The notes beneath the pieces are model-generated. The model had not been told where the DNA came from, did not search any database, and saw only the letters and a list, made by a program, of their open reading frames with translations. Both the position numbers and the translations under genes were made by a program. DNA of 64,000 nt, from positions 57,473 to 121,472 of the forward strand of contig JBHLPH010000004.1 of assembly GCA_048939625.1 (NCBI GenBank), read 5' to 3'. Shown one piece after another: positions 22,096 to 35,674 of the stretch. The first letter of the stretch is position 1. Each line of letters opens with the position of its first letter. This DNA is from Promethearchaeota archaeon (GTDB taxonomy: Archaea > Asgardarchaeota > Hermodarchaeia > Hermodarchaeales > Hermodarchaeaceae).

Positions 22096-23067
22096 ATGGA
22101 CCTCATCGACAAACAAATTATTTTCGAGCTTCTGATTAGTTATCGCGCCTCGTACCAAGCTATCGCAGAAAAACTCAATTTATCTGTCAATGCTGTTAAA
22201 AAACGATTTGAGAAGTTAAAAAATGTTGGGATAATCCGCGGTGGAGTTTTAGTTCCAATGCCAGTGATGAAAGGAACTGAAGATTGGCTGGCATTATTAC
22301 GAATGGATGAAGCTACAGCTTCAGATGACAGTCTAGAAAAAATTGGGTCTCACGTACTAGTTCAATCGGGAAGCCTTCTGACAGATGGAAGCATCCTCTG
22401 TTTCGGGTTCTATGGCGGAGCACAAGATCTTCAGGAGATAGGGGCTTTTCTCCGCCAAGTTCAAGGTGTCAAATCTGTGGAATTTCATACAATTCTAGCA
22501 CCACAAGGAAAGAAGACTGATTTGGCGAAGAACGATGTAAAGGTACTCCGATGTCTTCGGGAAGCCCCCCGAATCCCGATTAGCAAAATTACTGAAAAAA
22601 CAGGTATAAATTCAAGACGAGTTCGGAATATTCTGCAAAAATTAATTGGAGAAAACGGAGTCGAACCGATCTATTATATTAATTGGAAATCTCAAGGAAA
22701 AACTCATCCGAATGATGTTAGTTTCTTAGTGAGAGTTCATTGGAACCTAAATGCGGGTGGTTATACTGCCTTTATGATTCAGATTCGACACAAGGAAGGT
22801 GTGGAAGAAAGGAAAAAAATTACTGATATTCTGACAGATAATTATTCTTTCGAGTTTTGGTATGCCTATGCTTCTGCATTTGAGCCCGTGATATTCTGTG
22901 TGTTCTTGGTTGAGCACATGAGGGATTCGATAGAAATTGTAAAAACAGTAGAGCAGATTCCTCAAGCAGTTGAGGTGTATCCGATTTTCGGGTATCCTAC
23001 GAAGGTTTTTCGTAGTCAGGTTGATGATTATTTTGAAGGAATTTTCGAGAATATTGATCAGTACTGA
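22096..23067 (+). CDS. Tandem (double) Lrp/AsnC-type transcriptional regulator, paralog 1
   Basis: N-terminal AsnC HTH (DKQII.EL...RASYQAIAEKLNLSVNAVKKR) and second HTH (DVKVLRCLREAPRIPISKI). Confidence 0.85.
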   Translation: MDLIDKQIIFELLISYRASYQAIAEKLNLSVNAVKKRFEKLKNVGIIRGGVLVPMPVMKGTEDWLALLRMDEATASDDSLEKIGSHVLVQSGSLLTDGSILCFGFYGGAQDLQEIGAFLRQVQGVKSVEFHTILAPQGKKTDLAKNDVKVLRCLREAPRIPISKITEKTGINSRRVRNILQKLIGENGVEPIYYINWKSQGKTHPNDVSFLVRVHWNLNAGGYTAFMIQIRHKEGVEERKKITDILTDNYSFEFWYAYASAFEPVIFCVFLVEHMRDSIEIVKTVEQIPQAVEVYPIFGYPTKVFRSQVDDYFEGIFENIDQY

Positions 23068-23163: not shown

Positions 23164-23253
23164 TAAGAGGAAAGCCGGGCCCTGGTTGTCCACCGGTGCC
23201 CCAGAGGCCCGACACGCCGTTTGTCGAACCTCAGGTCCGGTTTCCACCCATCC
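23164..23253 (-). other. Structured 3' RNA of peptide unit U1
   Basis: Arms GCCGGGCCCTGG (23174-23185) and CCAGAGGCCCGAC (23201-23213), then a pyrimidine tract on the minus strand. Confidence 0.55.
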
Positions 23254-23397
23254 TCAGCGAATCATAAGCGGAAGTGCCTGTTCGAGACGTGGACCTGCTC
23301 GGGGATTGGTTCGACATCCAGCAAATAATCGCTCTGCACAGGTCATGCGAGCGACGTGAGCGTGATGATGAAGTTTCCGAGCGGTTTTCTTCTTCAT
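23254..23397 (-). CDS. Basic peptide U1 (47 aa), novel family
   Basis: MKKKTARKLHHHAHVARMTCAERLFAGCRTNPRAGPRLEQALPLMIR; GGAGGT SD; homologous to U2 and U3. Confidence 0.8.
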   Translation of the reverse strand: MKKKTARKLHHHAHVARMTCAERLFAGCRTNPRAGPRLEQALPLMIR

Positions 23398-23446
23398 GTT
23401 GCGTGTACCTCCAAGGTTGTGTTTAACGAAACAGGGATACGGAAAA

Positions 23447-23534
23447 TTAGATATGAATCGATGGGAGCCAATGAGTGCAAGAACAAGCAAAATGAGCAGT
23501 ATTAATGCCTCATTTTGCACAATGTAGTGTAAAG
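23447..23534 (-). promoter_or_regulatory. Shared promoter/operator, copy 1
   Basis: TCGATGGGAGC 23458, AGTGCAAGA 23474, TTTTGCAC-N6-GTGTAAAG 23513-23534. Confidence 0.75.
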
Positions 23535-23581
23535 TTCGAAAAATACTGCTTCAGAATATGAATAGAGGTATCTTGTAGTTG

Positions 23582-23926
23582 TTAGATCCAGCCACGGAAT
23601 TTGGCCAGAATCCACAGAATAGCAAAAGGAGCGATAACCATAAGTTCAATTTGTAAAACAATAATGAAATCCCCTACAGAGGTAGAACCATAGATACTAG
23701 AAGTGGCCACCCCACAGAAGAACGCATTATACCAAACGAAACACATATCAACTATTGTGAAAAGCGCGGCGAGTGTTCCACCCAGATCAAAAAGCCGACA
23801 CCCTTTATTCTTCAGGATACTGAAAATTTGATAAAGTCTTAAGCGAGAATCCTGTGCTTTTCGGGTCGCATTCTGTAAAGTAACAGGTTTGGAACCATTT
23901 GGTTTCTGATTATTAGGGAAAGCCAT
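23582..23926 (-). CDS. Small membrane protein U4 (114 aa, two C-terminal hydrophobic segments)
   Basis: MAFPNNQKP...; GGAG SD; start region identical over 14 nt to U2; shared promoter upstream (ORF track starts at 23983). Confidence 0.7.
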   Translation of the reverse strand: MAFPNNQKPNGSKPVTLQNATRKAQDSRLRLYQIFSILKNKGCRLFDLGGTLAALFTIVDMCFVWYNAFFCGVATSSIYGSTSVGDFIIVLQIELMVIAPFAILWILAKFRGWI

Positions 23927-24000
23927 TTTTGTTCTCCATCCAATTTCGTTGAATTCACCCGAAGACCCGTTCGGGCGTTTCATGCCATTAAAGGTTGATT

Positions 24001-24089
24001 TTACATATCAATCAATGGGAATTAAATCATGCAAAAAAATCGAAGCTACTTAAGGAAAAACTCCTTTTTTTGCGATAGGGGGTTCAAAA
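24001..24089 (-). promoter_or_regulatory. Shared promoter/operator, copy 4
   Basis: TCAATGGGAAT 24012, CATGCAAAA 24028, TTTTGCGA-N6-GTTCAAAA 24068-24089. Confidence 0.65.
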
Positions 24090-24300
24090 AAAGAATCTAT
24101 CTGCTATTAATTTCCATTTGATTAATCTAAGAGGTTCAAAAGTACTAACCATCTTCTTTTTGGAGCAGTTTAATAAAATGTGAATACTGCTTCTTCTTTA
24201 GGCAATTGCAGGAAAAAAAGTCGCTTATCTTGAATTTCAGAATCTAATGTGTTAAGGCTTATAAGGGATTAGAGAGGTTTAGCAGTCGGAGGGTTAAACC

Positions 24301-24429
24301 CTGTCATCAACGTGGTTAAACAATCCTTGGCTGATTGTTCAAGACCCCGGATTTCCCATAATGACGACTATCCTGATTCTCGTGATTATTATCTTAATCA
24401 TTGAAATCTATAAAGTCAGGAAGGATTAG
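24301..24429 (+). CDS. Putative single-TM leader peptide B (42 aa from CTG; internal ATG at 24361 gives 22 aa)
   Basis: (L)SSTWLNNPWLIVQDPGFPIMTTILILVIIILIIEIYKVRKD; GGAGGG 7 nt upstream; TATA-like CTTATAAG at 24258. Confidence 0.6.
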   Translation: MSSTWLNNPWLIVQDPGFPIMTTILILVIIILIIEIYKVRKD

Positions 24430-24471
24430 GTATTCGGGATTCTGATTCGAATTAGTCATATAGGGAACCAC

Positions 24472-24506
24472 GGGAGTTTTATCAACTCCCTCTCCCTCCT
24501 TTTTTT
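24472..24506 (+). terminator. Hairpin + anti-SD tract + T7 terminator/attenuator before the gingipain
   Basis: GGGAGTT/AACTCCC stem, TCTCCCTCC, TTTTTTT (24500-24506). Confidence 0.65.
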
Positions 24507-24643
24507 CAATAGGTTCGAGGTTTTTTCAAACTAAAATTGCCTTTGAATCCAGAGAAGCGAAGATAGTGAGTTTTCCCATATGAAAATAAATAGAATAAAG
24601 ATTACCAATATCAGGATTTGAATTTAGACCTTGAGGGAGAATC

Positions 24644-27600
24644 ATGAGTAGATTTCCTTTGGGCTTAAGTTACGTATTTATTATCATTTTAATTTGCCCT
24701 TCAATCCTAATGCAACCATATTCACCATTGCTTCTTGAAGACTATCCCTATAGTACTCCGAAAGACGCGGAATTTTGTACAGAACCACTAGCTTCCGCAC
24801 ATTTATCTACCTCTAAGCGAGCTTTGCCTATTCAGGGTGGTTCTTGGGTACAATTTCATTCTGAAGCAGAAATCGGGGGAGAGCCAGAGATAACACTTCT
24901 TTCGTCAGATACGATCCGATTAGTAGTCTTACTAGAGTGCCCAGGAATGTGGCGAGATGACATTATATTAAATCATACTGTGTATGACAGACTTGAAATC
25001 ATTTCAGCAGAGTCAACCGCCGATGTTGGTAATCCGAACATCCCTGTTCTGACAAAGATGCTAGAAGTTCCTTATGACATTGATGTTTCAGTCGAACTTC
25101 TCGATTCAGAATATCAGGATTTATCGGATTACCATATTGCACCTAGGCAAGAGTTAGTTTATCCTACTCCATCAATAACGTACCCAAGATTCTTCATTAA
25201 CACAACAGTCTATAACCAGAATTCGTTTTATCCAACCTCACTGACTTGGATTGAAGGAAGTCTAGCAGCGAATCCCATTGTAATCCGTGGCCATCGAATA
25301 ATCACATTGCACTTAGCTCCACTCCAATTTAACCCAGATAGACATATTTGTCGAGTATTTTCAAAGATCAAAGTGGCTGTACGATTTGCCCGACCAGCAG
25401 CAATTGAACCAATAAGTTCTCGGCTTCAGAGCTCGGCTTTTGAGGGAATATTAGAGAATTATCTTCTGAATTATCCTCATGGATTTTACAGCGGACTCTC
25501 AACATTACAGAATACTACTCCTTGGATTCCTCCGATTTGGACAATTCTCCCACCGTCAAAACAGATGCCCACGAGCGGATGCGAGTATCTTATTATTTCC
25601 CATGATGATTTTGTCGAGAAAGTTAGACCATTAGCAAACTGGAAGATTCAGAAAGGCATAACGACAAAACTCATTTCGATTACTGGGGTTTTTAATGAGT
25701 TAAACTGGGTAGTAACGTCTGATCCAGATACTATTAGGAGTGCAGTTTCAGAATACATTCAGTGGGCATACAATAGCTGGGATTTAGTACCAACTTATGC
25801 CCTCCTTGTTGGAGATGAAGCACATATTCCTCCACATTATATGACAATTCATCCACAGTATCTTACATTGAGTCCAACGGACTTAGGATACTTTCAGCTC
25901 GATGGACCCGATTATCTCCCGGAAATGCTGCATGGGCGACTTTCCGTTGACTCTGATACTCAAGCTGAAACCTTTGTCAATAAAATTCTTCAATACGAAC
26001 AGAATGGCGTAACTGATCCAACGGGTAATTTTTATAACAGAATCTGCGCTAGCGCATACTTCCAAGATAGAGATAATAATGGACAAGAAGATCCTGCATT
26101 TCGTCTAACTCAAACTGCTGAAAAGTTTCGAGAGTATGTAACCTCACGTTCGAATCCTTATGATGTGGACTATTTCTATGTTGCAGGAGCGTACAACTTG
26201 GACCCCTTTGCCATTACTCCCTCAACCTATGAAGATGGAACACCCCTTGATTCAAGTTTAGCAGGCCATGATTGGTTCCATCATTTTACACAAGCACAGA
26301 ATGTCATCGATACAATCAACCTTGGATCGTTTTTGCTATTCAATCTTGGCCATGGAGAATCGCGGAATTTTTACCGTCAATCGAATGGCACTTTTGGTCC
26401 ATTTGATGGTTGGCAGTATCCACCCTTTGTAACAGACCAGTTTCACCTGTTGACAAACGGAGACAAACTACCCGTAGTTCTGAGTTTAGATTGTAATACA
26501 GGCTGGTTTGATGAAGCCTACGATTATAGTCCAGCAAATTACGAATCCTTCTCCGAAGAGATTACCAGAAAGGCTGGCGGTGGTGCTGTTGCAGCACTTG
26601 GGGCTTCACGGCCCGTTCAGGCACCCGTGAGCGCGTTAATGCTGGAGGGAATTGCTGATGCAATTTGGGCTGATTATGATGGAAATATCGCCACAGGTGG
26701 TTTGAATAATTTGGGACAGATCATCCACTATAGCAAGATGCTAGTTATGGAACAATGGGGATATTTGGGTGAAGAATTGTGTTCTGTAAATACATTTGAA
26801 CTCTACCACCTTTTTGGAGATCCAGAGATGCCATTATGGACGCAAGAGCCTGAGGATCTGGAGGTTTATTATCCAACACATATTGGCATGGAGGGAGAGC
26901 AACGCTTTGTTGTCCAAGTGACTCGGAGCGGATTTCCTATTGGTTCAGCAAGAGTCTGTCTTCAAAAAGGCGGAGAGTTATATGCAGTGAATTTCACGGA
27001 TTCTAGAGGTTATGCGTATTTTTCAGTTAATCCCATAACAAGTGGATCTATGAATTTGACCGTGACAGCTAAGAACCATCTTCCATATACCACAGTAATT
27101 TTCGTTACCAGTGGTGGAGGAGTTCAGTTAAGTCGAGCCTCTGGGGCTGGAGAAACCACGATTACTATCACTGGAACAAAATTTACAAGTGCTAATATGG
27201 TCCATCTCTTCATAGGAAACCCATGGGAAGAAGAGGGAAGTGGTCAGGTACCTGTGGATGGGAGAGTTGAATTCACCTATACAATTCCAAGTGAACAAAC
27301 AGAACCACTGAATTTTTGGCTCCGTGAAATCCAAGTTATAAGTATTGATCCTCCGATTATTTTCACAGTCCGTGCCGGCGTTTCCTATTACTCACCGTAT
27401 TTTGAAGCTCCAGATTTGTATACCTATTGTCAATGGAATGAAGAAACATGGCATTTGAATCCTAAAGGATCATCTGCCAATGAGAATCCCTGTTGGGATA
27501 ATCCTTCGATAGAGGTGAAAGATGATCAGGGAAATGTAGTTACATCAGGAAACTTACAAATTGGTTCTATCTATACTATTCATGCTGATATACACAACGC

Positions 27601-28243
27601 AGGACCAATTCATGCAAATAACGTCAAAGTGTTCTTCAACTGGTCTAGATGGGGAATTGGCCAAGTGACTTGGCATGCGATAGGAAATGACACAATTGAT
27701 GTCCTGCCTTGGGGTCAGTCGATGGCTGTAATGGTCTTTGTGCCAACTGTTGAAGACATGATTTGTATTCGAGTAGCAGTATCACATCCTGAAGATAGCA
27801 ATCCTTACAATGATTGGGGTGTTGAAAACACCTTAGCACTCTTCACTCCGGACCGCATCGGCATCGAATTGCCAGTCTTCAACCCAACTTCCAGAGAAAG
27901 CCATATGTTTATCCAATTGACTCAAGATAACATATTAGGTGCTTTGTGGACAGCATCAGTTGATCATATTTCAGATTCACAACTAGGACCAAGTGAATCA
28001 ACTAATATCATAATCAGTTTCGTTATCCCAGACGATGTTAGAGAAGGTGATATGCACAATTTCACAATAAACGCCTTTATCGAACAATATATCACAGGGG
28101 GAGTCAGTATTTGTCTAACGAAAAGACCGCCTCAATTAGTGATACCATGGCACCTAATCCTCCCGCTAATTGTTTTAGTGATTATCAGTATTATCATCGT
28201 ATTCGTTTTTAAGAAGCGCTTTCGAGAAAGTGATGAAAATTAG
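24644..28243 (+). CDS. C25 (gingipain) family cysteine peptidase, secreted, C-terminally membrane-anchored
   Basis: Signal-like N-terminus; propeptide (G.P..P); EYLII, YALLVGD, GRL, LGHG (His), SLDCNTG (Cys), LFGDP; Ig/CARDB-like domains; TM + KKR. Confidence 0.9.
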   Translation: MSRFPLGLSYVFIIILICPSILMQPYSPLLLEDYPYSTPKDAEFCTEPLASAHLSTSKRALPIQGGSWVQFHSEAEIGGEPEITLLSSDTIRLVVLLECPGMWRDDIILNHTVYDRLEIISAESTADVGNPNIPVLTKMLEVPYDIDVSVELLDSEYQDLSDYHIAPRQELVYPTPSITYPRFFINTTVYNQNSFYPTSLTWIEGSLAANPIVIRGHRIITLHLAPLQFNPDRHICRVFSKIKVAVRFARPAAIEPISSRLQSSAFEGILENYLLNYPHGFYSGLSTLQNTTPWIPPIWTILPPSKQMPTSGCEYLIISHDDFVEKVRPLANWKIQKGITTKLISITGVFNELNWVVTSDPDTIRSAVSEYIQWAYNSWDLVPTYALLVGDEAHIPPHYMTIHPQYLTLSPTDLGYFQLDGPDYLPEMLHGRLSVDSDTQAETFVNKILQYEQNGVTDPTGNFYNRICASAYFQDRDNNGQEDPAFRLTQTAEKFREYVTSRSNPYDVDYFYVAGAYNLDPFAITPSTYEDGTPLDSSLAGHDWFHHFTQAQNVIDTINLGSFLLFNLGHGESRNFYRQSNGTFGPFDGWQYPPFVTDQFHLLTNGDKLPVVLSLDCNTGWFDEAYDYSPANYESFSEEITRKAGGGAVAALGASRPVQAPVSALMLEGIADAIWADYDGNIATGGLNNLGQIIHYSKMLVMEQWGYLGEELCSVNTFELYHLFGDPEMPLWTQEPEDLEVYYPTHIGMEGEQRFVVQVTRSGFPIGSARVCLQKGGELYAVNFTDSRGYAYFSVNPITSGSMNLTVTAKNHLPYTTVIFVTSGGGVQLSRASGAGETTITITGTKFTSANMVHLFIGNPWEEEGSGQVPVDGRVEFTYTIPSEQTEPLNFWLREIQVISIDPPIIFTVRAGVSYYSPYFEAPDLYTYCQWNEETWHLNPKGSSANENPCWDNPSIEVKDDQGNVVTSGNLQIGSIYTIHADIHNAGPIHANNVKVFFNWSRWGIGQVTWHAIGNDTIDVLPWGQSMAVMVFVPTVEDMICIRVAVSHPEDSNPYNDWGVENTLALFTPDRIGIELPVFNPTSRESHMFIQLTQDNILGALWTASVDHISDSQLGPSESTNIIISFVIPDDVREGDMHNFTINAFIEQYITGGVSICLTKRPPQLVIPWHLILPLIVLVIISIIIVFVFKKRFRESDEN

Positions 28244-28311
28244 GATTTTTCAATAAGTGGAAAGAAAACAAATGTGCCATACTCTATTTATAGTCGTGAA
28301 GACCACAGAGT

Positions 28312-28327
28312 GTGGATTCGGACCTTT
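28312..28327 (+). promoter_or_regulatory. 16-nt element GTGGATTCGGACCTTT upstream of Lrp paralog 2
   Basis: Identical copy at 29510-29525; both lie 25 nt after a TTTAT box. Confidence 0.65.
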
Positions 28328-28409
28328 AGGGCGTTCTACAAGCAGAATGGAGTAAATTAGTGATTTAAGTTCTCCATATGACCTCAACATATACCTTAAC
28401 GTGATTGTT

Positions 28410-29378
28410 ATGGATCTGGTTGACAAGAACATTGTGTTCGAGCTTTCCGTCAATTATCGTGCTTCATATCAGACGATTGCCAAGAAACTAAATCTTTCTG
28501 TGAATGCTGTCAAGAAACGTATTGAGAAACTAAAGGAGAGTGGAATAATTCGGGGAGGTTTATTACTTCCAATGAATGCAATGTTGGGGATGGAAGATTG
28601 GATAGCCATTTTGCATACTAAAAACCCCACCCCTTCAAGTAATTTTCTTGACACATTGGGAAAACATCCATTGATGACTGCCGCAAGTATTCTTACAGAT
28701 GGAAGTATTTTGTGCCATGGGAGTTACTCAGGAGCATATGGTCTTCGAGATATTGGATCGTTTTTACGGCAGATACCTGAAGTGGACTCTGTAGATTTTC
28801 ATACACTTCTCTCTGTGCCAGGGAAACGTTGTGAATTATCAACTGCTGACTTGAAAGTCCTGAGATGTCTCTACGAAGAGCCTCGAATTTCTATTATAGA
28901 TATTTCTAAAAAAACTGGCCTTAGTCCTCGCCGGATTCGAATGAGCATACACGAATTAATAGGTGAAAACGGCTCCGAACCGGCTCTATACTTGGAGTGG
29001 GAGCCGAGGGGTGGTTCTCGTCCTGAAGAGGTTAGTTTTAAGGTTTCAATTCACTGGGATTTGAATGCTGGTGGATATACGGCATTCATTATGATGATTC
29101 GACACGAAGAGGGGAGTGTGTCACAGTCTAAGATTGTTAGAATGTTAAAAGAACAGTATCCAATGGATTTTTGGTATGCATATGCCTCGGCGTTTGAGCC
29201 TGTGATTTTTTGTATTTTTGTCGTTGAACACTTACGAGACGCTACAAACATTGCAAATACGATTCGGAAAATCCCTGAAGCGATTACTGCAAATACGATT
29301 TTTGGTTATCCAACTAAACGATATCGAAGTCCTATTGATGACTATTTTGAAGAACTTTTCAAGCAGATCGACGACTAA
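28410..29378 (+). CDS. Tandem Lrp/AsnC-type regulator, paralog 2
   Basis: Same two-HTH architecture; shared LTDGSILC, LNAGG, FWYAYASAFEPVIF. Confidence 0.87.
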   Translation: MDLVDKNIVFELSVNYRASYQTIAKKLNLSVNAVKKRIEKLKESGIIRGGLLLPMNAMLGMEDWIAILHTKNPTPSSNFLDTLGKHPLMTAASILTDGSILCHGSYSGAYGLRDIGSFLRQIPEVDSVDFHTLLSVPGKRCELSTADLKVLRCLYEEPRISIIDISKKTGLSPRRIRMSIHELIGENGSEPALYLEWEPRGGSRPEEVSFKVSIHWDLNAGGYTAFIMMIRHEEGSVSQSKIVRMLKEQYPMDFWYAYASAFEPVIFCIFVVEHLRDATNIANTIRKIPEAITANTIFGYPTKRYRSPIDDYFEELFKQIDD

Positions 29379-29509
29379 TTAGGGTTTTCACAACCTAATC
29401 GCTTTCCCTTCATTTTGCTTTACGTCTAATTTGATACTGATGTCATCAGTAGTTAGGGGGTCCTTTTAGGTGAGCCGAACAAATTTTATGCTTTAAAATA
29501 GTGGTGTAA

Positions 29510-29525
29510 GTGGATTCGGACCTTT
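29510..29525 (+). promoter_or_regulatory. 16-nt element GTGGATTCGGACCTTT upstream of Lrp paralog 3
   Basis: Identical to 28312-28327. Confidence 0.65.
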
Positions 29526-29610
29526 GAGACAGCATTGGGTGGTTTTGTTAAGACAATACAGTCTTCAAGCTACTATCCTGCTAGCTGCAAAAAGGCATTA
29601 AGTGGTGGCA

Positions 29611-30582
29611 ATGGACGCCGTGGACAAGAACATCATTTTCGAGCTATCGACAAACTATCGTGCTTCATATCAGGCTATTGCTAAGAAAATGGATCTTTCA
29701 GTGAATGCTGTTAAGAAGCGAATTGAGAAACTCAAAGAAAGTGGAGTAATTCGGGGTGGGTTATTACTTCCTATGAGGGCAATGTTGGAGATGGATGATT
29801 GGGTTGCCTTATTACGCACTGAAGATCCAATTCCTTCTGATCAGTTTCTTGATGTTATTGGGGCACATCGGTTAGTGGGATCTGCGAGTATTCTTACGGA
29901 TGGTAGTATTTTGTGTTTTGGGTGGTACCCTGGCTCTTCAGGGCTTGAGGAAATTGGTACATTCTTGCGTTCAACTCCTGGTGTTGAGTCGGTGGAATTT
30001 CATACGATTCTTGCGGATCCTGGGAAGCGCTGCGAGTTGTCTGTATCTGACGTGAAGGTGCTTCGATGTTTGCATAAAGAGCCACGGATGTCAATTAGTG
30101 ATATTTCTAATGAAACGCGCCTTACGCCCCGCCGTATTCGGAAAATCATTGATGCGTTAATTGGTGAAAATGGTTCAGAGTCCAATATCTATTTGAATCA
30201 CCCGTCCAGAGGGGGGAAGCGACCAGAAGAGGTATGCTTTCAACTAAGTTTGCGTTGGAATTTGAATGCTGGGGGACATACCGCATTTGTAATTATAATT
30301 CGCCATGAAGAGGGGGCCCAACCCCGTTCAAAGATTGTGGATATTCTCAAGGAGAACTTTCCGGTGAAATTTTGGTATGCGTATGCATCAGCCTTTGAGC
30401 CGGTGATTTTTTCTGTGTTCGTGGTTGAGCATATGCGCGAAGCCAGTGAAATCATTGAGACAATTCGTAAGACGCCTGAAGCGATTTCAGCGAATGCAAT
30501 CTATGGATATCCTTCACGAATATTTCACAGTCCCATAGATGATTACTTCGAAAAGCTCTTCAAACGACTAGAAAGAGACTAA
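29611..30582 (+). CDS. Tandem Lrp/AsnC-type regulator, paralog 3
   Basis: Close paralog of 28410-29378. Confidence 0.87.
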   Translation: MDAVDKNIIFELSTNYRASYQAIAKKMDLSVNAVKKRIEKLKESGVIRGGLLLPMRAMLEMDDWVALLRTEDPIPSDQFLDVIGAHRLVGSASILTDGSILCFGWYPGSSGLEEIGTFLRSTPGVESVEFHTILADPGKRCELSVSDVKVLRCLHKEPRMSISDISNETRLTPRRIRKIIDALIGENGSESNIYLNHPSRGGKRPEEVCFQLSLRWNLNAGGHTAFVIIIRHEEGAQPRSKIVDILKENFPVKFWYAYASAFEPVIFSVFVVEHMREASEIIETIRKTPEAISANAIYGYPSRIFHSPIDDYFEKLFKRLERD

Positions 30583-30616
30583 AGCAGTGAAAGTTTTGAC
30601 ATAAGGAAAAGGTCTG

Positions 30617-31393
30617 TTAGAGGTCCCAATCATATTTTGTGAAGAAGAAAGGATAACAGTCATCAGGTTTGAGTTCTTCAAGAGTTTCAGCAGGTAATAA
30701 CCAGATATCAGTCTGAGAAGTGTAAGCAGCTGTTGTGACTTCGAGAACTGGGATTTCATGAATTGGATCATCGAGGGACTTGTTGAGTTTAAGCTCACCG
30801 GGTCCGATTTCAATTGGCCCGTAATTGATTTTGTTAAGTAAACGGAGTAGTCGAGGATGGTTATCGACGGAAATGCCATCTATACCGGGGAAAGCTTTGA
30901 GCAGAAACCAAGGAGTTGCACTAAAGGCTTCTGGGAAGGGAGTCTGCATGATTGCTTTAATTTCGATTATAGGGATACCATGGCGGGTACACACACCATG
31001 TACAGCATTTCCTTTGCGTGTGAGCGTGATTGAATCTGCGATTTTTTTGGGAAATCCATATAATTCACGTCCTGCGGCCATAGCGAGATCATTATCAACG
31101 GGCATGGCGAGGCAATAGCTTCCCTGTTCATTATTATATTGGACTTGCACGGAGAGTGCGGCTTCGTTGTAGGGAGCAATGAAGTTAGGTTCGAGAAATT
31201 CCGCGACATATGCTGTTCCTAGCGCTTCGGGGGAGGGTTCCAGTGGAGGGGGAATTATGCGTTTAATGACTTGGAGGTCAGTTTTGAAAATTACCATTAA
31301 CATGTTGACCTTACCGAGGAGGAAGCCCTGTGCAAATTTCTTGCTTCGCTTTTTGAGGTCGTCTCGGGAGTGGACTAAACTCATTATAGACAC
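30617..31393 (-). CDS. Acetoacetate decarboxylase (ADC) family protein
   Basis: IPPPLEP, PYNEAAL, AAGRELYGFPKK with the Schiff-base Lys. Confidence 0.88.
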   Translation of the reverse strand: MSIMSLVHSRDDLKKRSKKFAQGFLLGKVNMLMVIFKTDLQVIKRIIPPPLEPSPEALGTAYVAEFLEPNFIAPYNEAALSVQVQYNNEQGSYCLAMPVDNDLAMAAGRELYGFPKKIADSITLTRKGNAVHGVCTRHGIPIIEIKAIMQTPFPEAFSATPWFLLKAFPGIDGISVDNHPRLLRLLNKINYGPIEIGPGELKLNKSLDDPIHEIPVLEVTTAAYTSQTDIWLLPAETLEELKPDDCYPFFFTKYDWDL

Positions 31394-31404
31394 CGGTTTG
31401 TATT

Positions 31405-32169
31405 CTAAGCTGGCTTTGTATTAAAGCGCTTAGTGTGTCGGTGTCGAAAAACAAAAGTAATTCCGAAAAGGATGACTAGCAATAAAACTCCAAGTCCTAG
31501 CCAAAACAGTGTTGTGTAGTTTTGTTCTTCGAGAGAAAGAATTCCTAAGGTATGGAAGTTGCTGGCTGTTAGTTCACGTGTGACGCGATATGTGTAGATT
31601 GCGTGTTGAGAGGCGAGGAGCTCGTAGGTATACTTGAGAAGAATTCCCTCCGTGTAGTGGAAGTACCAGTTTTCGCTACATTGTTGAAAATCGTCATCAA
31701 TCGAAAACCATGCAACTGATTGGACTCGCCAACAGAGAAAGGTTCCGAATTCAAGAGAGATGTAGCTTGATGTGAGAGGGTAATTCCCTGTATACGGGGA
31801 GAAAGCCACAGAATGCCCATGGTGCCATCTGGAAGTATTGACCCAAAGTGGAGGTTGGAGAGGTCTTTCAAGCAAAGTTCCATTTAATAATATGATTCGC
31901 CATGTTGAACTATTGAGGAACATTTCCCCCTGCAATATATCCTCGTTAGTGGACGAGATATTGATGAGGAAAAGCGAGTTACGTTGCACTGATGTTGCCG
32001 ATTGGATTGTGAACTGTTCATCCCATTCACCCTGCAGGTCATCAGTTACATGGTAGTTGAGAAAAAGCCCAGTGGGTAAAGATGCAAGCCTAGTCGGGAT
32101 AGAAATTAAGAATGACAGTAATATGACGAATAACACAAACCGAATTCGTTTCTTTCTTAAAATCCTCAT
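31405..32169 (-). CDS. Secreted, C-terminally membrane-anchored hypothetical protein
   Basis: MRILRKKR + hydrophobic signal; C-terminal TM + basic tail (ORF track starts at 32205). Confidence 0.75.
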   Translation of the reverse strand: MRILRKKRIRFVLFVILLSFLISIPTRLASLPTGLFLNYHVTDDLQGEWDEQFTIQSATSVQRNSLFLINISSTNEDILQGEMFLNSSTWRIILLNGTLLERPLQPPLWVNTSRWHHGHSVAFSPYTGNYPLTSSYISLEFGTFLCWRVQSVAWFSIDDDFQQCSENWYFHYTEGILLKYTYELLASQHAIYTYRVTRELTASNFHTLGILSLEEQNYTTLFWLGLGVLLLVILFGITFVFRHRHTKRFNTKPA

Positions 32170-32185
32170 CGTGAACCCTTCAGTG

Positions 32186-33163
32186 TCAAAGATTGGCATG
32201 GGCAATCATTTCATCAATCATTGATTCGCGTAATCCAACATATTTTCGGAGAGGAAAGCTGACCCAAATCTCAACCTTCGAGATATTAGGTGCTTTTCGT
32301 ATCACGGGAAGGATTTTTTCGGATTCACGAATGTGGTTTACAATGAAGACACAATAGATAATCGGTTCAGTGGCAGCAACAAAGGAAAACCAGAATTCGA
32401 AGGGGAAGTGGCTTTTGAAGTATTGGACAACTCCTTCAGGAGATCCTTTGCCTTCTTCCCAGTTAGTTCGAACAACAAACGCATTACCGCCTCCTGCATT
32501 AAGGTCCCAGTAGATGCGAAAATGTAAGGCAGCTTTGGATTGGCTAATTTCCGGTTTGTATTCTTTATCAACAAGAGTTTCGATGGGAGTTCCAACCTTG
32601 CCATGAAAGTCTTGGATGACGCTGCGAATGCGTCGAGGTGTTAAACCAGTTTGCTCTGAAATTTGTGAGATAGGCATCCGTGCATCCTCTCGTAGAGATC
32701 GGAGGACTTTCAAATGTCCGTCTGTCATAGGAATTTTTTGACCACGATCTGCAATGAGAGTGTGAATTTCAACGTTCGCGACGCCTGGCAGTTGGCGAAG
32801 AAATCCACCGAGTTCAGATAGACCTTGTGCTCCGATATATTCTGCGAAGACGAGGATGGATCCATCAGAAAGATAACCAGCACTGAAAACGGATGGATGT
32901 GCACCTATGCGGTCTAGAAATTCTGGACTGAAATGGGTGTCGCTAAGAGTGATTCGGGCAAGGAACCATTCAGCGTCCATCATGGCTAGACTGAGATACA
33001 CATAATATCGTTGGATAACTCCTTCTTCTTCCAGTTTCAATATTCTTTTCTTCACAGCGTTCACTGTAAGGTCTAGCCGAGTTGCGATTGTTTGATAAGT
33101 GACTCGACAGTTGGTTGCGAGTTCGAGAAGAATGCTTTTGTCTACAATATCCAATGGAGGCAC
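32186..33163 (-). CDS. Tandem Lrp/AsnC-type regulator, paralog 4 (more diverged)
   Basis: LDIVDKSILLEL..NCRVTYQ, LSDGSIL, WDLNAGG, FWFSFVAATEP. Confidence 0.85.
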   Translation of the reverse strand: MPPLDIVDKSILLELATNCRVTYQTIATRLDLTVNAVKKRILKLEEEGVIQRYYVYLSLAMMDAEWFLARITLSDTHFSPEFLDRIGAHPSVFSAGYLSDGSILVFAEYIGAQGLSELGGFLRQLPGVANVEIHTLIADRGQKIPMTDGHLKVLRSLREDARMPISQISEQTGLTPRRIRSVIQDFHGKVGTPIETLVDKEYKPEISQSKAALHFRIYWDLNAGGGNAFVVRTNWEEGKGSPEGVVQYFKSHFPFEFWFSFVAATEPIIYCVFIVNHIRESEKILPVIRKAPNISKVEIWVSFPLRKYVGLRESMIDEMIAHANL

Positions 33164-33324
33164 CTTATCTTGGGGGTTGACCTGAATTGGCTGTTCTCGG
33201 ATATATTTACGAGGAATGGCGAAGCTAGTCTTTGGATTCTCCGTTGTCAGGAATTCAGCGAGATATAATTCGTAAGCACTCCGGTTTAATCCTTTTGAAA
33301 TGTAGCATGCCTTTTGAATGCCCT

Positions 33325-33528
33325 AATAAAAAATAAATAAAAAAGCCGGGTCTTCAGGGTATCCTTCCCCTCCATTTCGGCACTTCCCGGTCCGTGCGCA
33401 TGGGTGGCAATGGACCATTTTGGACAACGGATTCGGAGTTTTCGTCCGGTTACCGAGAAGACCCGGCTAAGGTCAGCGTCCAAGGTCCGTGTCACTGGTG
33501 TGTCAGTGTCGATCCCTAGTAATCATGA
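33325..33528 (-). other. Structured 3' RNA and U-rich terminator of peptide unit U2
   Basis: Perfect 12-bp inverted repeat AGCCGGGTCTTC (33344-33355)/GAAGACCCGGCT (33457-33468) enclosing ~100 nt; A-rich tract 33325-33344. Confidence 0.7.
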
Positions 33529-33651
33529 TTAGCGTCGTGAAGTTACGACAGCAAAGGTGATTCGGTCTCGTGGAGTGCCTTTGGGGTTTTTCGCACCGGT
33601 AACAGCGCGTTCTGCAAGGGCCATTTTGGCAATTTTCTTTTTCGGAGCCAT
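33529..33651 (-). CDS. Basic peptide U2 (40 aa), novel family
   Basis: MAPKKKIAKMALAERAVTGAKNPKGTPRDRITFAVVTSRR; GGTGA SD; not in ORF track. Confidence 0.82.
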   Translation of the reverse strand: MAPKKKIAKMALAERAVTGAKNPKGTPRDRITFAVVTSRR

Positions 33652-33700
33652 TTTTGTTCACCGTCCCGCCGATGCGAGACAATGATACCTAACCCGAAAA

Positions 33701-33788
33701 TTGCATATTATTCGATGGGAGCTTGTCAGTGCAAAAATCCGACAAAAAGAGAGAGAGTGTGCCAACTTTTGCACTAAGTGGTGCAAAA
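33701..33788 (-). promoter_or_regulatory. Shared promoter/operator, copy 2
   Basis: TCGATGGGAGC 33712, AGTGCAAAA 33728, perfect TTTTGCAC-N6-GTGCAAAA 33767-33788. Confidence 0.8.
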
Positions 33789-33825
33789 ATCAGGAACGCA
33801 CCCTGAAAAGGACTTGGGTGGGAGT

Positions 33826-34009
33826 AAACCGGGCCTACGAAAGCTCCCGACCACAAGAACCACGAAATTAGATCACCCGTTGCTGAATCGCTACTGCGCC
33901 GATTCCCCAGCAACAGGAAGAGGAACAAGTGGCGGTTGTGTAGGCCCGATTGACGTGGCTGCAAGGGGTTTTTGGTGATCGTTTCTTCACCATAGGGATT
34001 CCTCACAGC
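33826..34009 (-). other. Structured 3' RNA of peptide unit U3
   Basis: CGGGCCTAC (33830-33838)/GTAGGCCCG (33940-33948) closing stem; inner GTTGCTG/CAGCAAC and GAATCG/CGATTC; second stem 33957-33966/34001-34010. Confidence 0.7.
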
Positions 34010-34150
34010 CTAGCGTCGGCTAAGGACCAGCATGACTGCATATCGAGTCCGAGGTTTTGCTACCGGATGGGGGTTACGGCAGCCGGCTACGGCACGTTCA
34101 GTCGCCGACATATCTGCTAGTTTCTTATGTTTATGTTCGGATTTGGCCAT
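34010..34150 (-). CDS. Basic peptide U3 (46 aa), novel family
   Basis: MAKSEHKHKKLADMSATERAVAGCRNPHPVAKPRTRYAVMLVLSRR; GGAGGG SD; not in ORF track. Confidence 0.82.
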   Translation of the reverse strand: MAKSEHKHKKLADMSATERAVAGCRNPHPVAKPRTRYAVMLVLSRR

Positions 34151-34222
34151 CTCAAATCCCTCCAATTGTGTGTCACCAGGATCCCTGTTGGGAATCCCAG
34201 AGCAAATACGAATCGGCGTCCG

Positions 34223-34310
34223 TTTGATAAGAATCGATGGGAGCAGCCGAGTTCAAAATCCCGCAATTTCCACTTTTGGATTCAGAAATCTTGAACTTCG
34301 CAATGCAAAA
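34223..34310 (-). promoter_or_regulatory. Shared promoter/operator, copy 3
   Basis: TCGATGGGAGC 34234, AGTTCAAAA 34250, TCTTGAAC-N6-ATGCAAAA 34289-34310. Confidence 0.75.
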
Positions 34311-34522
34311 CCGAGTAAGAGGATTTGCCTTTTTGCGAATTGTTGAACTCTCAAGTGTAAAATTCCGTTCTTCGAGGGATTTTTGATGTGTTAGACCCGA
34401 GAGCATTTTAGCCAAGGAGATGTATTTCTAACAGTGAAACGTCGTTAATATAGTAGTGAATGGAAAGCCCTTTTCTAACGAATTGGTTTGTCTGGGAAAA
34501 GAGAGTTGGAGTTGATGGCTGT

Positions 34523-34960
34523 ATGAATCCGTTACATGTGTTTCCTTTCAAGTATATGCAGATTATTGTCGCTTTGCTAGCTGAGGGTGAGGTAGACCTT
34601 TCGGAGATTCGGTCCTCCACTGGCATGTGTAGCTTTGATTCCACAGAAGTATCGGATATGCTAGCGTACTTGACAGGATTTGGTCGAGTTGAAGCCCAAG
34701 ATGATGGTTGGGTTATACATAAAACGGAAACAAAAGCGGTCTATGAGCGATTTCGCAAGGCATTCCTCGATGATGCTGTGGCGATCCTCACGAATTTATC
34801 AACCAAGGCCAAACCGATTGAACAGTTACAACAGAAAACTGGTCTTAGTGCAGAGAAAATAAATCTGTATTTGCCGTTCCTTGCAGACATCACTCGATTG
34901 GGTGTTATTGGACGGTGTTCAACCGAGCACCCAACCATTTGGTGTGTCCAGTCAGAGTAG
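34523..34960 (+). CDS. Hypothetical protein, probably tandem winged-helix
   Basis: Two helix-turn-helix-like repeats (LSEIRSSTG..., IEQLQQKTGLS...), each ending G.V/I...W; ORF track starts at 34460. Confidence 0.6.
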   Translation: MNPLHVFPFKYMQIIVALLAEGEVDLSEIRSSTGMCSFDSTEVSDMLAYLTGFGRVEAQDDGWVIHKTETKAVYERFRKAFLDDAVAILTNLSTKAKPIEQLQQKTGLSAEKINLYLPFLADITRLGVIGRCSTEHPTIWCVQSE

Positions 34961-35674
34961 TTGATTGAGTTGGGGTAGAAGTTCACCAGCTTTACCAGCG
35001 AGATGCACATCAACGAGAGGAGTCAAAGGTGTATCTTCGACGTTTATCTCCAAAATTTTTCCATTGTGCCGTTTGACGATAAGAGGAAAGGAGGCAGCAG
35101 GTTGAATCAGAGCAGAAGTACCAATGACGAAAATCGTGTCTGCTTTGTTCAATTCAACGATTACCTGATCCATGACTCTTTGTGGAAGTGATTCGCCAAA
35201 CCAGACAACATTGGGACGAAGATTAGCTGAACAATCGGGACAGGTAGGAACACCAGAGGCGGGTGTTGTGAGGCGGGACTGGTAGGAGCATTGTGTACAT
35301 TTGACAGCCCATAGGTTTCCATGGACTTCGAGGACGTTTGTTGAACCAGCGTGGCGATGGAGCCCGTCGACATTTTGTGTAATCAAAGCTTTGAGTAAGC
35401 CCGTTTTTTCCCAGGCCGCTAGCGTTTCATGGGCAGGGTTAGGTGTGCACTGAGCGATAAGGTTCTGACGCCAACTATACCAATCCCAGACGAGTTGAGG
35501 ATTCTGTTTGAAAGCGTTTGACGTGGCAAGCTCCATAGCATTATATTGTTTCCAGAGCCCATCTTTTCCGCGGAAGGTGGGAACGTTCGATTCTTTGGAG
35601 ATCCCAGCCCCTGTGAGAGCCACCATGTAGTGTGTGCTTCTAATGATGTCTACAGCCTGATTAGTTGGGTTCAT
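34952..35674 (-). CDS. cobB: Sir2/CobB NAD-dependent deacylase
   Basis: TGAGISKES.VPTFRG, TQNVDGLH, HG..CxxC..CxxC, RPNVVWFGE, IGTS. Confidence 0.95.
   Translation of the reverse strand: MNPTNQAVDIIRSTHYMVALTGAGISKESNVPTFRGKDGLWKQYNAMELATSNAFKQNPQLVWDWYSWRQNLIAQCTPNPAHETLAAWEKTGLLKALITQNVDGLHRHAGSTNVLEVHGNLWAVKCTQCSYQSRLTTPASGVPTCPDCSANLRPNVVWFGESLPQRVMDQVIVELNKADTIFVIGTSALIQPAASFPLIVKRHNGKILEINVEDTPLTPLVDVHLAGKAGELLPQLNQLL

Follow-up and report, generated by a model that had tools for sequence, protein, structure and literature searches.

Background

Asgard archaea are the closest prokaryotic relatives of eukaryotes, yet to our knowledge almost nothing is known of their microproteins, promoters and regulatory RNAs, and small proteins in general are routinely missed or mis-annotated. 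The 64,000-nucleotide stretch of Promethearchaeota DNA analysed here (the window) raises this problem in a concrete form: it contains three very short, mutually similar open reading frames, U1, U2 and U3. Are these genuine genes, how are they controlled, and what might peptides of 40 to 47 residues do? A sequence-only reading of the window had proposed that they form a novel family and had offered several possible roles for it, which we weigh below against comparative evidence.

Results

Three genes for short, basic peptides

The three ORFs are present on the minus strand with the coordinates and sequences originally quoted:

23254..23397, minus strand: U1 microprotein gene (coordinates include the stop codon); 47 aa, pI 11.6, Shine-Dalgarno (SD) sequence GGAGGT
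33529..33651, minus strand: U2 microprotein gene; 40 aa, pI 11.9, SD GGTGA
34010..34150, minus strand: U3 microprotein gene; 46 aa, pI 11.0, SD GGAGGG

As the earlier reading had stated, each ATG is preceded by an SD, at a distance of 6-9 nt, and each frame ends in CGC followed by a different stop codon (TGA in U1, TAA in U2, TAG in U3). Pairwise identity is 44-50% for amino acids and 48-51% for nucleotides, falling to 28-44% at third codon positions. The peptides have pI values of 11-12, with 11 Lys and Arg within 40-47 residues, and are hydrophilic (GRAVY -0.53 to -0.68). The hydrophobic stretch attributed to them is weak: the highest 15-residue Kyte-Doolittle mean lies at 0.42-0.56 (0.4-0.6 when rounded), and it is therefore not a membrane segment. 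A check of U1-U3 for a signal peptide, a transmembrane segment, or a hydrophobic core or N-terminus found none of these. AlphaFold2 gave pLDDT values of 63.6 and 61.2 despite alignments of 35 and 48 sequences, so that the models suggest microproteins that do not fold confidently on their own (pLDDT 61-64). Neither a low pLDDT nor a basic charge is a specific trait.

That the similarity of the three peptides reflects selection on coding sequence was borne out by the analysis of nine orthologs, from nine species, each for U2 and U3. We obtained dN/dS values of 0.09 for U2 and 0.105 for U3, in a comparison in which dS exceeds 1, with variable columns clustered at third codon positions (counts at positions 1/2/3: 11/6/29 in U2, where 29 of 33 codons vary at the third position, and 15/14/33 in U3). 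Insertions and deletions in the N-terminal tails of orthologs are multiples of three, and the SD is conserved among them. The conserved core, which comprises 33-36 residues as a whole, is nearly invariant within each of five orthologous subfamilies; since dN/dS is about 0.1 across all of it, selection acts on the amino-acid sequence itself. U1-U3 are thus genuine protein-coding genes under purifying selection.

An orphan family confined to one lineage

A profile built from U1-U3 alone, the search that the earlier reading had recommended, recovered three further ORFs in the same genome (E = 2e-9, 5e-9 and 2e-6), making a six-member orphan family, and found relatives in 17 of the 18 genomes of the organism's own GTDB family, with 2-7 matches per genome, figures that are not exact copy numbers. 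The 282 genomes sampled from 29 further families in the phylum contain no member, and the family is so far confined to one family-level Asgard lineage, whose genomes NCBI labels Thorarchaeota, Promethearchaeota or Hermodarchaeota. Of the originally proposed consensus, the part that shows complete or near-complete invariance across the family is limited to (E/D)R..G..NP...P. U1 orthologs (P0019, P0021, P0032, P0034 and P0041) retain ..HVARMTCAERLFAGCRTNPRAGPRLEQAL.L.IR, and 8 further genomes of the genus preserve the tandem of U3 followed by U2. At other loci the paralogs stand alone amid unrelated housekeeping genes; one of them, A45, has a second micro-ORF between the peptide gene and its RNA.

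The statement that the peptides belong to no known family held in every collection searched. Pfam, NCBIfam and PHROGs have no family for U1-U3, and 35 members gave chance-level matches only (E at least 0.02); the best profile match among PDB sequences had E 1.3; the ESM Atlas returned no usable match; and 1.84 billion protein representatives, searched exhaustively by HMM, yielded 21 matches, none of them characterised, of which all but two are 40-88 aa and the two very long ones look spurious. These very basic proteins of 40-50 residues therefore constitute a previously undescribed family. One database entry (P0018) lists U1 as 88 aa and, because the extension covers U1's own promoter box, is over-extended, an example of how such genes are mis-annotated.

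A shared promoter cassette beside tandem-wHTH regulators

Upstream of all three genes lies a common cassette, in which a distal palindrome, TTTTGCAC-N6-GTGCAAAA, is followed 52 nt downstream by a half-site and then by a GCTCCCATCGA box abutting a TATA element:

23446..23489, minus strand: U1 promoter cassette; half-site TCTTGCAC, GCTCCCATCGA box and A/T-rich TATA-like box; PWM score 54.8
23513..23534, minus strand: U1 distal palindromic operator, CTTTACAC-N6-GTGCAAAA; begins 52 nt upstream of the proximal half-site
33700..33743, minus strand: U2 promoter cassette; TTTTGCAC half-site, GCTCCCATCGA and AATAATAT; PWM score 59.8
33767..33788, minus strand: U2 distal operator, a perfect TTTTGCAC-N6-GTGCAAAA palindrome; 52 nt to the half-site
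34222..34265, minus strand: U3 promoter cassette; TTTTGAAC half-site, GCTCCCATCGA and TATA-like box; PWM score 47.5
34289..34310, minus strand: U3 distal operator variant, TTTTGCAT-N6-GTTCAAGA; 52 nt to the half-site

The U1 cassette can be aligned with those of U2 and U3, and the U3 cassette is conserved among orthologs. In U2 both arms of the distal operator and the GCTCCCATCGAATAATA core of the cassette are invariant in 9 species, and the perfect palindrome is the single such site in the window, with 0 expected in shuffled sequence. At the four sites for which spacing was determined, operator and half-site are 52-53 nt apart; 52 nt corresponds to about 5 helical turns. We know of no description of a bipartite operator with 52-nt phasing and a GCTCCCATCGA box. 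A PWM scan of the 2.3-Mb genome returned only 6 good cassette sites, all preceding small genes, namely U1-U3 and three others. One of the latter lies upstream of U1:

23582..23926, minus strand: small membrane-protein gene orf133; 114 aa from the probable start MAFPNN; cassette at 24000-24043, distal operator at 24068-24089

This gene, which has no Pfam match, is a candidate for co-regulation with U1, and its ortholog adjoins a U1-type gene in another locus (L032). Upstream of the A45 paralog lies a strong BRE/TATA promoter of ordinary type, with no operator.

All six good sites adjoin genes for paralogous tandem-wHTH regulators of the Lrp/AsnC type, four of which lie in the window:

22096..23067, plus strand: regulator paralog convergent with U1; HTH_24 matched twice; syntenic in relatives
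28401-29378 and 29602-30582, plus strand: two further regulator paralogs
32186..33163, minus strand: regulator directly downstream of U2; two HTH_24/HTH_AsnC domains

The paralogs show 35-67% identity. Relatives of the 32186..33163 regulator are named "Lrp family transcriptional regulator" in their sources, and the regulator genes are syntenic with the U genes in related genomes. Cassette sites occur beside tandem-wHTH genes at two independent loci, the second being on contig C61, where two sites flank another such gene. This co-location makes the 32186..33163 protein a candidate regulator of the cassette. The same island encodes two proteases, a subtilase (20182-21867) and a gingipain-like C25 peptidase (24644-28243); neither gene carries a cassette.

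Structured RNAs downstream of the coding sequences

Each microprotein gene is an autonomous monocistronic module, in which promoter, hairpin-containing leader with the SD, ORF and GC-rich structured RNA follow one another. Set against 1228 control genes, the 3' regions rank at the 94th-99th percentile for GC content, and in U2 and U3 the structured RNA starts about 60 nt past the stop codon:

33336..33468, minus strand: U2 3' structured RNA, 133 nt; closing stem GCCGGGUCUUC/GAAGACCCGGC, then a U-run
33827..33951, minus strand: U3 3' structured RNA, about 125 nt; closing stem CGGGCCUAC/GUAGGCCCG and an inner long hairpin
23167..23253, minus strand: GC-rich U1 3' region; two overlapping hairpins, the second terminator-like (GUCGGGCCUCUGG..CCAGGGCCCGGC-UUU)

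The U2 element (MFE -53.6 kcal/mol, z -2.95) has 74 of its 133 columns invariant in 9 species and a consensus fold of 29 pairs, 3 of them compensatory; its invariant blocks of 9-15 nt, set against an adjacent ORF in which 29 of 33 third positions vary, indicate sequence-specific constraint on the RNA. In the U3 element (z -3.9) 10 of 34 pairs show compensatory change, and 93% of cells are paired, as opposed to 29-48% in a control with partners slid by 1-3 columns. The U1 element is less well supported than these two (MFE z -2.1; 6 pairs with compensatory change in 5 orthologs, the covariation of the terminator-like hairpin being judged by eye).

Most paralogs' 3' RNAs terminate in a U-run. Paralogs at other loci and copies from a second genus likewise have stem-closed 3' RNAs with U-runs, some sharing a CCGGGUCUUC/GAAGACCCGG stem. 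Searching the window against Rfam gave no match at gathering score, and permissive filters produced chance matches only (E 1.7 or more). Genome-wide, a covariance model (R1) and nhmmer recovered the U2 element alone, and no homology between the RNA elements of different paralogs is statistically detectable. By eye only, GGGUCUUC, CCGUUG, GCCACC and GGAGGG are common to them. A long GC stem with a U-run could be a simple terminator or an mRNA-stabilising structure.

Discussion

What the microproteins may do

A pI of 11-12, the lack of a confident autonomous fold and a linked, conserved structured RNA make nucleic-acid binding the best-fitting guess. Our tentative preference, which we rate somewhat short of an even chance, is for RNA-binding microproteins that stay unfolded until bound and possibly bind their own 3' RNA. 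The cassette would serve as the operator of the neighbouring paralogous tandem-wHTH regulators, and the microproteins would then belong to a small regulon, for which amino acids or feast and famine would be plausible signals. Without a stable fold of their own, the Arg/Lys-rich peptides would fold on a target RNA. The most economical candidate would be the conserved structured RNA made from the 3' region of the peptide's own gene, and the two would then form a small cognate RNP or an autoregulatory loop; rRNA would be an alternative target. The fuller version of this scheme, in which cognate peptide-RNA pairs have co-diversified into five or six specific small RNPs induced by the tandem-wHTH regulators through the shared phased operator, we consider unlikely.

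The same genes might instead encode regulatory microproteins that dock onto enzymes, transporters or Lrp-type regulators, their 3' RNA being merely a terminator or stabiliser. A dedicated small-gene regulon beside regulators, peptides with no autonomous fold, and four regulator paralogs in the window, with which several microprotein paralogs could pair as partners, would all suit such a role; the high pI, more typical of nucleic-acid binders, and U2 RNA loop sequences conserved well beyond the needs of a terminator do not, and we give docking a minor share of the probability. A comparable arrangement is known from Methanosarcina mazei, in which nitrogen-regulated small proteins modulate glutamine synthetase or GlnK/AmtB. 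These too are stand-alone genes of fewer than 50 aa, joined in a regulon by a shared promoter-adjacent operator; they are NrpR-regulated, not notably basic and devoid of a conserved 3' RNA, whereas the U genes accompany a tandem-wHTH Lrp/AsnC-like regulator and share no sequence similarity with them.

Slightly less probable is a ribosomal role, as lineage-specific ribosomal proteins or as rRNA-binding stress or hibernation factors. In size (near 40-60 aa), charge (pI above 11) and disorder the peptides resemble proteins such as eL39, eL40 and eS30, and the operator-free BRE/TATA promoter of A45 is what a constitutive housekeeping gene would have. However, they match no ribosomal-protein model, lie outside ribosomal operons, occur as several paralogs per genome in a single family-level lineage, and in three copies are placed under an operator-controlled promoter. 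Identity with eL39, eL40 or eS30 themselves was rejected: there is no match to PF00832, PF01020 or PF04758, and since canonical eL39 (C35:15213-15338, 66.7 bits) and eS30 (C12:71753-71899, 45.9 bits) and an eL40-like match just below the cut-off (C42:7207-7326, 22.3 bits) are encoded elsewhere in the genome, the family is not a displaced copy. A faint resemblance can be seen by eye between ..AYKVMTSRR and the eL39 segment ..AWVMLKTDR.

Two roles raised by the earlier reading, taken here in a broader sense, fare poorly. Export or processing, whether as signals, as leaderless bacteriocin-like peptides or as substrates of the adjacent S8 and C25 proteases, gains some appeal from the location of both proteases in the island, from the tandem paralogs and from the richness of the peptides in Arg and Lys, after which gingipains cleave. 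It is nevertheless very improbable: the peptides have neither a signal peptide nor a transmembrane or hydrophobic segment; no transporter, immunity, modification or export gene recurs beside the paralogs; the proteases, which occur only in the U-gene island, stand outside the cassette regulon, and at other loci the neighbours are housekeeping genes. A RiPP or other exported precursor was discarded on the same evidence. We give still less credence, next to none, to the notion that the ORFs matter only by being translated, as leader or arrest peptides, or are a by-product of an RNA gene whose structured RNA is what functions. Conservation of the 3' RNAs does equal or exceed that of the ORFs, but a dN/dS near 0.1 over the whole 33-36-residue core largely refutes it, and paralogs can still be assigned to one protein family even though their RNAs are too diverged to be recognised as related. 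Nor is there a downstream gene in the same transcript for an arrest peptide to control: the U2 unit closes with its stem and U-run 170 nt before the next gene, U1 is convergent with its neighbour, and other paralogs are stand-alone genes at unrelated loci.

Comparison with other small-gene systems

The proposed RNA-binding role has its nearest parallel in arginine-rich-motif peptides such as phage lambda N with boxB, HIV Tat with TAR, and Rev with RRE. Like these, the U peptides are short, strongly basic and probably unfolded alone, have an RNA hairpin encoded in cis and, by analogy, would be expected to fold on structured RNA. Those peptides are viral antitermination or export factors, whereas the U genes are chromosomal, multi-paralog and archaeal, bear no sequence relationship to them and have their RNA 3' of the ORF, binding by the U peptides being a proposal. 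Type I toxin-antitoxin systems likewise combine small ORFs with heavily structured mRNAs, but there the toxin is a hydrophobic membrane peptide accompanied by an antisense RNA, and this assignment was rejected for the U peptides, which have no hydrophobic transmembrane helix (Kyte-Doolittle maximum as above) and a GRAVY of -0.5 to -0.7. The putative control circuit recalls archaeal Lrp/AsnC (feast/famine) regulons, with palindromic A/T-rich operators at or overlapping BRE/TATA, regulators beside their targets and HTH_24/HTH_AsnC domains; the regulators here, unlike Lrp/AsnC, are about 320 aa long and join two wHTH domains in a tandem fusion, their Pfam matches do not include the model of the AsnC ligand-binding domain, and their operator binding is putative.

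Implications

The locus provides a clean, selection-verified example of microproteins from Asgard archaea, an orphan basic family accompanied by conserved 3' RNA structures missing from Rfam. Its operator/promoter cassette predicts the targets of a specific group of Lrp-type regulators and, even if the peptides do not bind their own RNAs, would remain a rare sequence-level handle on transcription regulation in Asgard archaea. If they do bind them, they would represent a new kind of modular RNP; and if the pairing of peptide and RNA proved to be cognate, this one Asgard lineage would harbour a type of archaeal micro-RNP or regulatory module that has not been known before.

Results and discussion

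Three small basic proteins under purifying selection

All three ORFs lie on the minus strand, at exactly the positions given by a sequence-only reading. Two details of that reading held as well: a Shine-Dalgarno sequence (SD) lies 6-9 nt 5' of the ATG in each of the three, and each ORF ends in CGC followed by a stop codon that is different in every case.

Microprotein genes U1-U3
23254-23397, minus, U1, 47 aa, SD GGAGGT
33529-33651, minus, U2, 40 aa, SD GGTGA
34010-34150, minus, U3, 46 aa, SD GGAGGG

The encoded proteins can be aligned end to end, with identity at 44-50% of residues compared with 28-44% of third codon positions. They are strongly basic (pI 11.0-11.9; K+R = 11, D+E = 2-3), and a hydrophobic segment is absent from all three (maximum 15-residue Kyte-Doolittle mean 0.4-0.6; GRAVY -0.5 to -0.7). 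For U2 and U3, compared across nine orthologs apiece with synonymous sites near saturation, dN/dS was 0.09 and 0.105, respectively, variable columns at codon positions 1/2/3 numbered 11/6/29 (U2) and 15/14/33 (U3), and length differences in the Lys-rich N-terminal tail were in-frame. The amino-acid sequence is thus under selection, in agreement with the coding selection proposed earlier, and selection acting at this level excludes both chance ORFs and 'translation-only' leader peptides.

A new family confined to one archaeal lineage

The U genes belong to a family of conserved, translated, lineage-restricted microproteins. A profile built from U1-U3 only yielded three further ORFs when run on the organism's own 2.3-Mb assembly, each with an SD.

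Additional paralogs in the same assembly (contig:positions)
C59:10482-10634, 50 aa
C3:38846-38983, 45 aa (the A45 paralog)
C29:53352-53489, 45 aa

The six-sequence profile in turn retrieved 32 database proteins from MAGs labelled Thorarchaeota, Promethearchaeota or Hermodarchaeota; their source names are 'hypothetical protein' or none, and a function is assigned to none of them. Within the window's GTDB family (two genera), six-frame searches of whole genomes turned up the microproteins in 17 genomes out of 18, at 1-7 matches apiece; the 282 genomes sampled from 29 further families of the phylum yielded none. Exhaustive searching of 1.84 billion representative proteins with a profile gave 21 matches, 19 of which are 40-88 aa long while the two very long ones look spurious, so that no fused forms or distant known relatives emerged from this search. 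Five orthologous subfamilies can be distinguished, each with an almost invariant core of 33-36 residues; across the whole family, complete or near-complete invariance is limited to (E/D)R..G..NP...P. One family copy (G014:C6:44748-44882, minus) is broken by three stop codons (TGA, TAG, TAA) and is probably a decayed paralog.

The initial impression that no known family was involved was borne out by the databases. Pfam gave no match for U1-U3 and one chance match among 35 family members, NCBIfam and PHROGs matched the family at chance level only, the best match among PDB sequences had E = 1.3, and the ESM Atlas search returned no usable match; a literature search on Asgard or Thorarchaeota small proteins found nothing relevant. 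Depositors have called its members nothing but hypothetical proteins, and on that ground the family itself counts as new. Arginine-rich RNA-binding peptides and small ribosomal proteins offer the closest working likeness, but the units appear to belong to neither, and none of the tests run for membership in a known class succeeded. A by-eye likeness to eL39 failed on testing, and displaced eL39, eL40 or eS30 were rejected, canonical copies of both eL39 (66.7 bits) and of eS30 (45.9 bits) being encoded elsewhere in the genome together with an eL40-like match slightly below cut-off. AlphaFold2 models of U3 (35-sequence alignment) and of a GSKW-type paralog (48 sequences) reached pLDDT values of only 63.6 and 61.2 and disagree in secondary structure, which is what one would predict for a peptide whose folding depends on a partner.

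A phased promoter cassette beside tandem winged-helix regulators

The DNA upstream of U1, U2 and U3 aligns in fixed register. From 5' to 3', the proximal cassette consists of a half-site TTTTGCAC, ~7 nt, the box GCTCCCATCGA and an A/T-rich TATA-like box; a distal palindrome, TTTTGCAC-N6-GTGCAAAA, begins exactly 52 nt 5' of the half-site (~five helical turns). A comparison of nine species showed no variation at U2 in either arm of the palindrome or in the GCTCCCATCGAATAATA core. Scanning the whole genome with a position-weight matrix built on the 44-nt proximal part revealed six good sites.

Good cassette sites in the genome
Before U1, U2 and U3: three of the six
24000-24043, distal operator 24068-24089: before a small membrane-protein gene (23582-23926, minus) directly upstream of U1
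Contig C61: before an 80-aa membrane/signal-type ORF (locus L036:4359-4601, minus)
Contig C61: before a 93-aa ORF (L036:5954-6235, plus)

The small membrane protein measures ~114 aa counted from an SD-preceded ATG, and the pairing of its gene with U1 is kept in one relative (locus L032). Neither C61 ORF has a Pfam match; between their cassettes lies a regulator gene (L036:4795-5748, minus) encoding 317 aa with two HTH_24/HTH_AsnC domains. The C3 and C29 paralogs gave no match to the cassette matrix and are preceded by ordinary promoter-like sequence.

In the window, too, the common cassette is co-located with such tandem-wHTH regulators, four paralogs of which lie within 11 kb.

Tandem-wHTH regulator genes of the window
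22096-23067, plus, convergent with U1
28401-29378, plus
29602-30582, plus
32186-33163, minus, directly downstream of U2

These proteins are ~325 aa long, carry two HTH_24/HTH_AsnC winged-helix domains each and are 35-67% identical; additional copies are found on contig C61. Members of this tandem Lrp/AsnC-like fusion family occur widely in MAGs with Thor-, Hermod- and Odin- labels, and the neighbourhood of regulator and U gene is syntenic in relatives. Judging from this co-location, the regulators would bind the cassette and control its genes. Variant half-sites (TTGAAC/GTTCAA) at U3 and the C59 paralog would fit paralog-specific recognition.

The same island also holds two peptidase genes; neither has the cassette, and both are missing from the neighbourhoods of other paralogs.

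Peptidase genes of the island
20182-21867, plus, S8 subtilase
24644-28243, plus, C25 (gingipain-like) peptidase, 1199 aa, with propeptide

Several relatives keep two further genes in synteny with the U3-U2 tandem: one for a 166-aa protein whose wHTH-like match is weak (34460-34960, plus) and one for a Sir2-family deacetylase (34952-35674, minus).

Conserved RNA structures around the ORFs

In the U2 leader, the SD is immediately preceded by a 7-bp hairpin whose pairing is kept among orthologs by compensatory changes (GTCTCGC/GCGGGAC vs GTCCTG/CAGGAC). Conserved RNA structures also occur 3' of the ORFs, where GC content is 51-57% against 44.6% for the genome (94th-99th percentile when ranked against the corresponding regions of 1228 long ORFs).

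RNA structures 3' of U1-U3
33336-33468, minus, U2 element: closing stem GCCGGGUCUUC/GAAGACCCGGC, then a U-run
33827-33951, minus, U3 element: compensatory change in 10 of 34 consensus pairs
23167-23253, minus, U1 region: two overlapping hairpins, the second terminator-like; weaker support than U2 and U3

In nine species, 74 of the 133 columns of the U2 element (MFE z -2.95) are invariant, including blocks of 9-15 nt; in the adjacent ORF, by contrast, the third codon position is variable in 29 of 33. For the U3 element, 93% of cells are paired compared with 29-48% when partners are slid, and its covariation score was higher than that of every shuffle. The two U1 hairpins have the segment GUCGGGCCU in common and so would be mutually exclusive, like antiterminator and terminator; no gene lies 3' of them on the same strand.

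Other paralogs and the second-genus copies are likewise followed by a stem-closed RNA and, in most cases, a U-run, and one copy in the second genus shares its closing stem, GGGUCUUC/GAAGACCC, with the C3 paralog. Rfam gave no match for the 3' elements; a covariance model of the U2 RNA matched only the U2 element itself in the genome; nhmmer with the U2 RNA alignment found nothing significant at other paralogs (best E = 12, C29 copy); and a pattern search for a generic closing stem plus T-run returned only the U2 and A45 elements, besides unrelated sites. That the 3' RNAs of different paralogs are homologous is thus an impression gained from short common motifs, without statistical support.

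The A45 paralog is followed by a second micro-ORF of ~27 aa with its own SD (G000:C3 ~39020-39105; ~1657-1742 in locus L006), which reads M.NKK....GS.KDYFVYSLIL.RR and is discernible in most of six aligned species. A 124-nt RNA with closing stem GGGUCUUCCGG/CCGGAAGACCC lies 3' of it (C3:39171-39294). In several members from the second genus (loci L043-L048), a different conserved terminator-hairpin motif, GGGCUGAAYCC...GGGUGUCGGGA within a long GC stem and then a U-run, stands ~70-130 nt past the peptide stops.

Three other interpretations of these regions were discarded. A hammerhead or other self-cleaving ribozyme, suggested by eye from CUGAAGA and GUC in the U2 RNA, would place its core positions within the closing stem and has no Rfam match; the motifs AUGAUG/CUGA, which lie close to the A45 and U2 elements and were read as C/D boxes, are unconserved; and a coding role for the GC-rich 3' regions, such as a 34-aa ORF at 33323-33427, fails on ortholog indels that break the frame.

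Possible functions

We tentatively favour RNA binding, at somewhat short of an even chance: the microproteins would bind RNA, their own 3' RNA or rRNA being the candidate targets. The partner on which such a peptide may fold could instead be a protein, and a protein-binding regulatory microprotein is unlikely but deserves some weight. A ribosome-associated factor, which the likeness to small ribosomal proteins brings to mind, appears rather doubtful; the genome has its eL39 and eS30 elsewhere. That the products are exported or processed peptides, in an island that also encodes two peptidases lacking the cassette, seems highly improbable, and to a translation-only or incidental ORF, given the selection on the protein sequence, we attach next to no credence. 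The remaining probability belongs to an explanation that nobody has considered.

Considered as a kind, small basic microproteins controlled by an HTH regulator nearby have precedent. To our knowledge, neither the lasting association of microprotein and conserved 3' RNA nor the phased bipartite operator has been described before. We regard the microprotein finding as real and of moderate interest.
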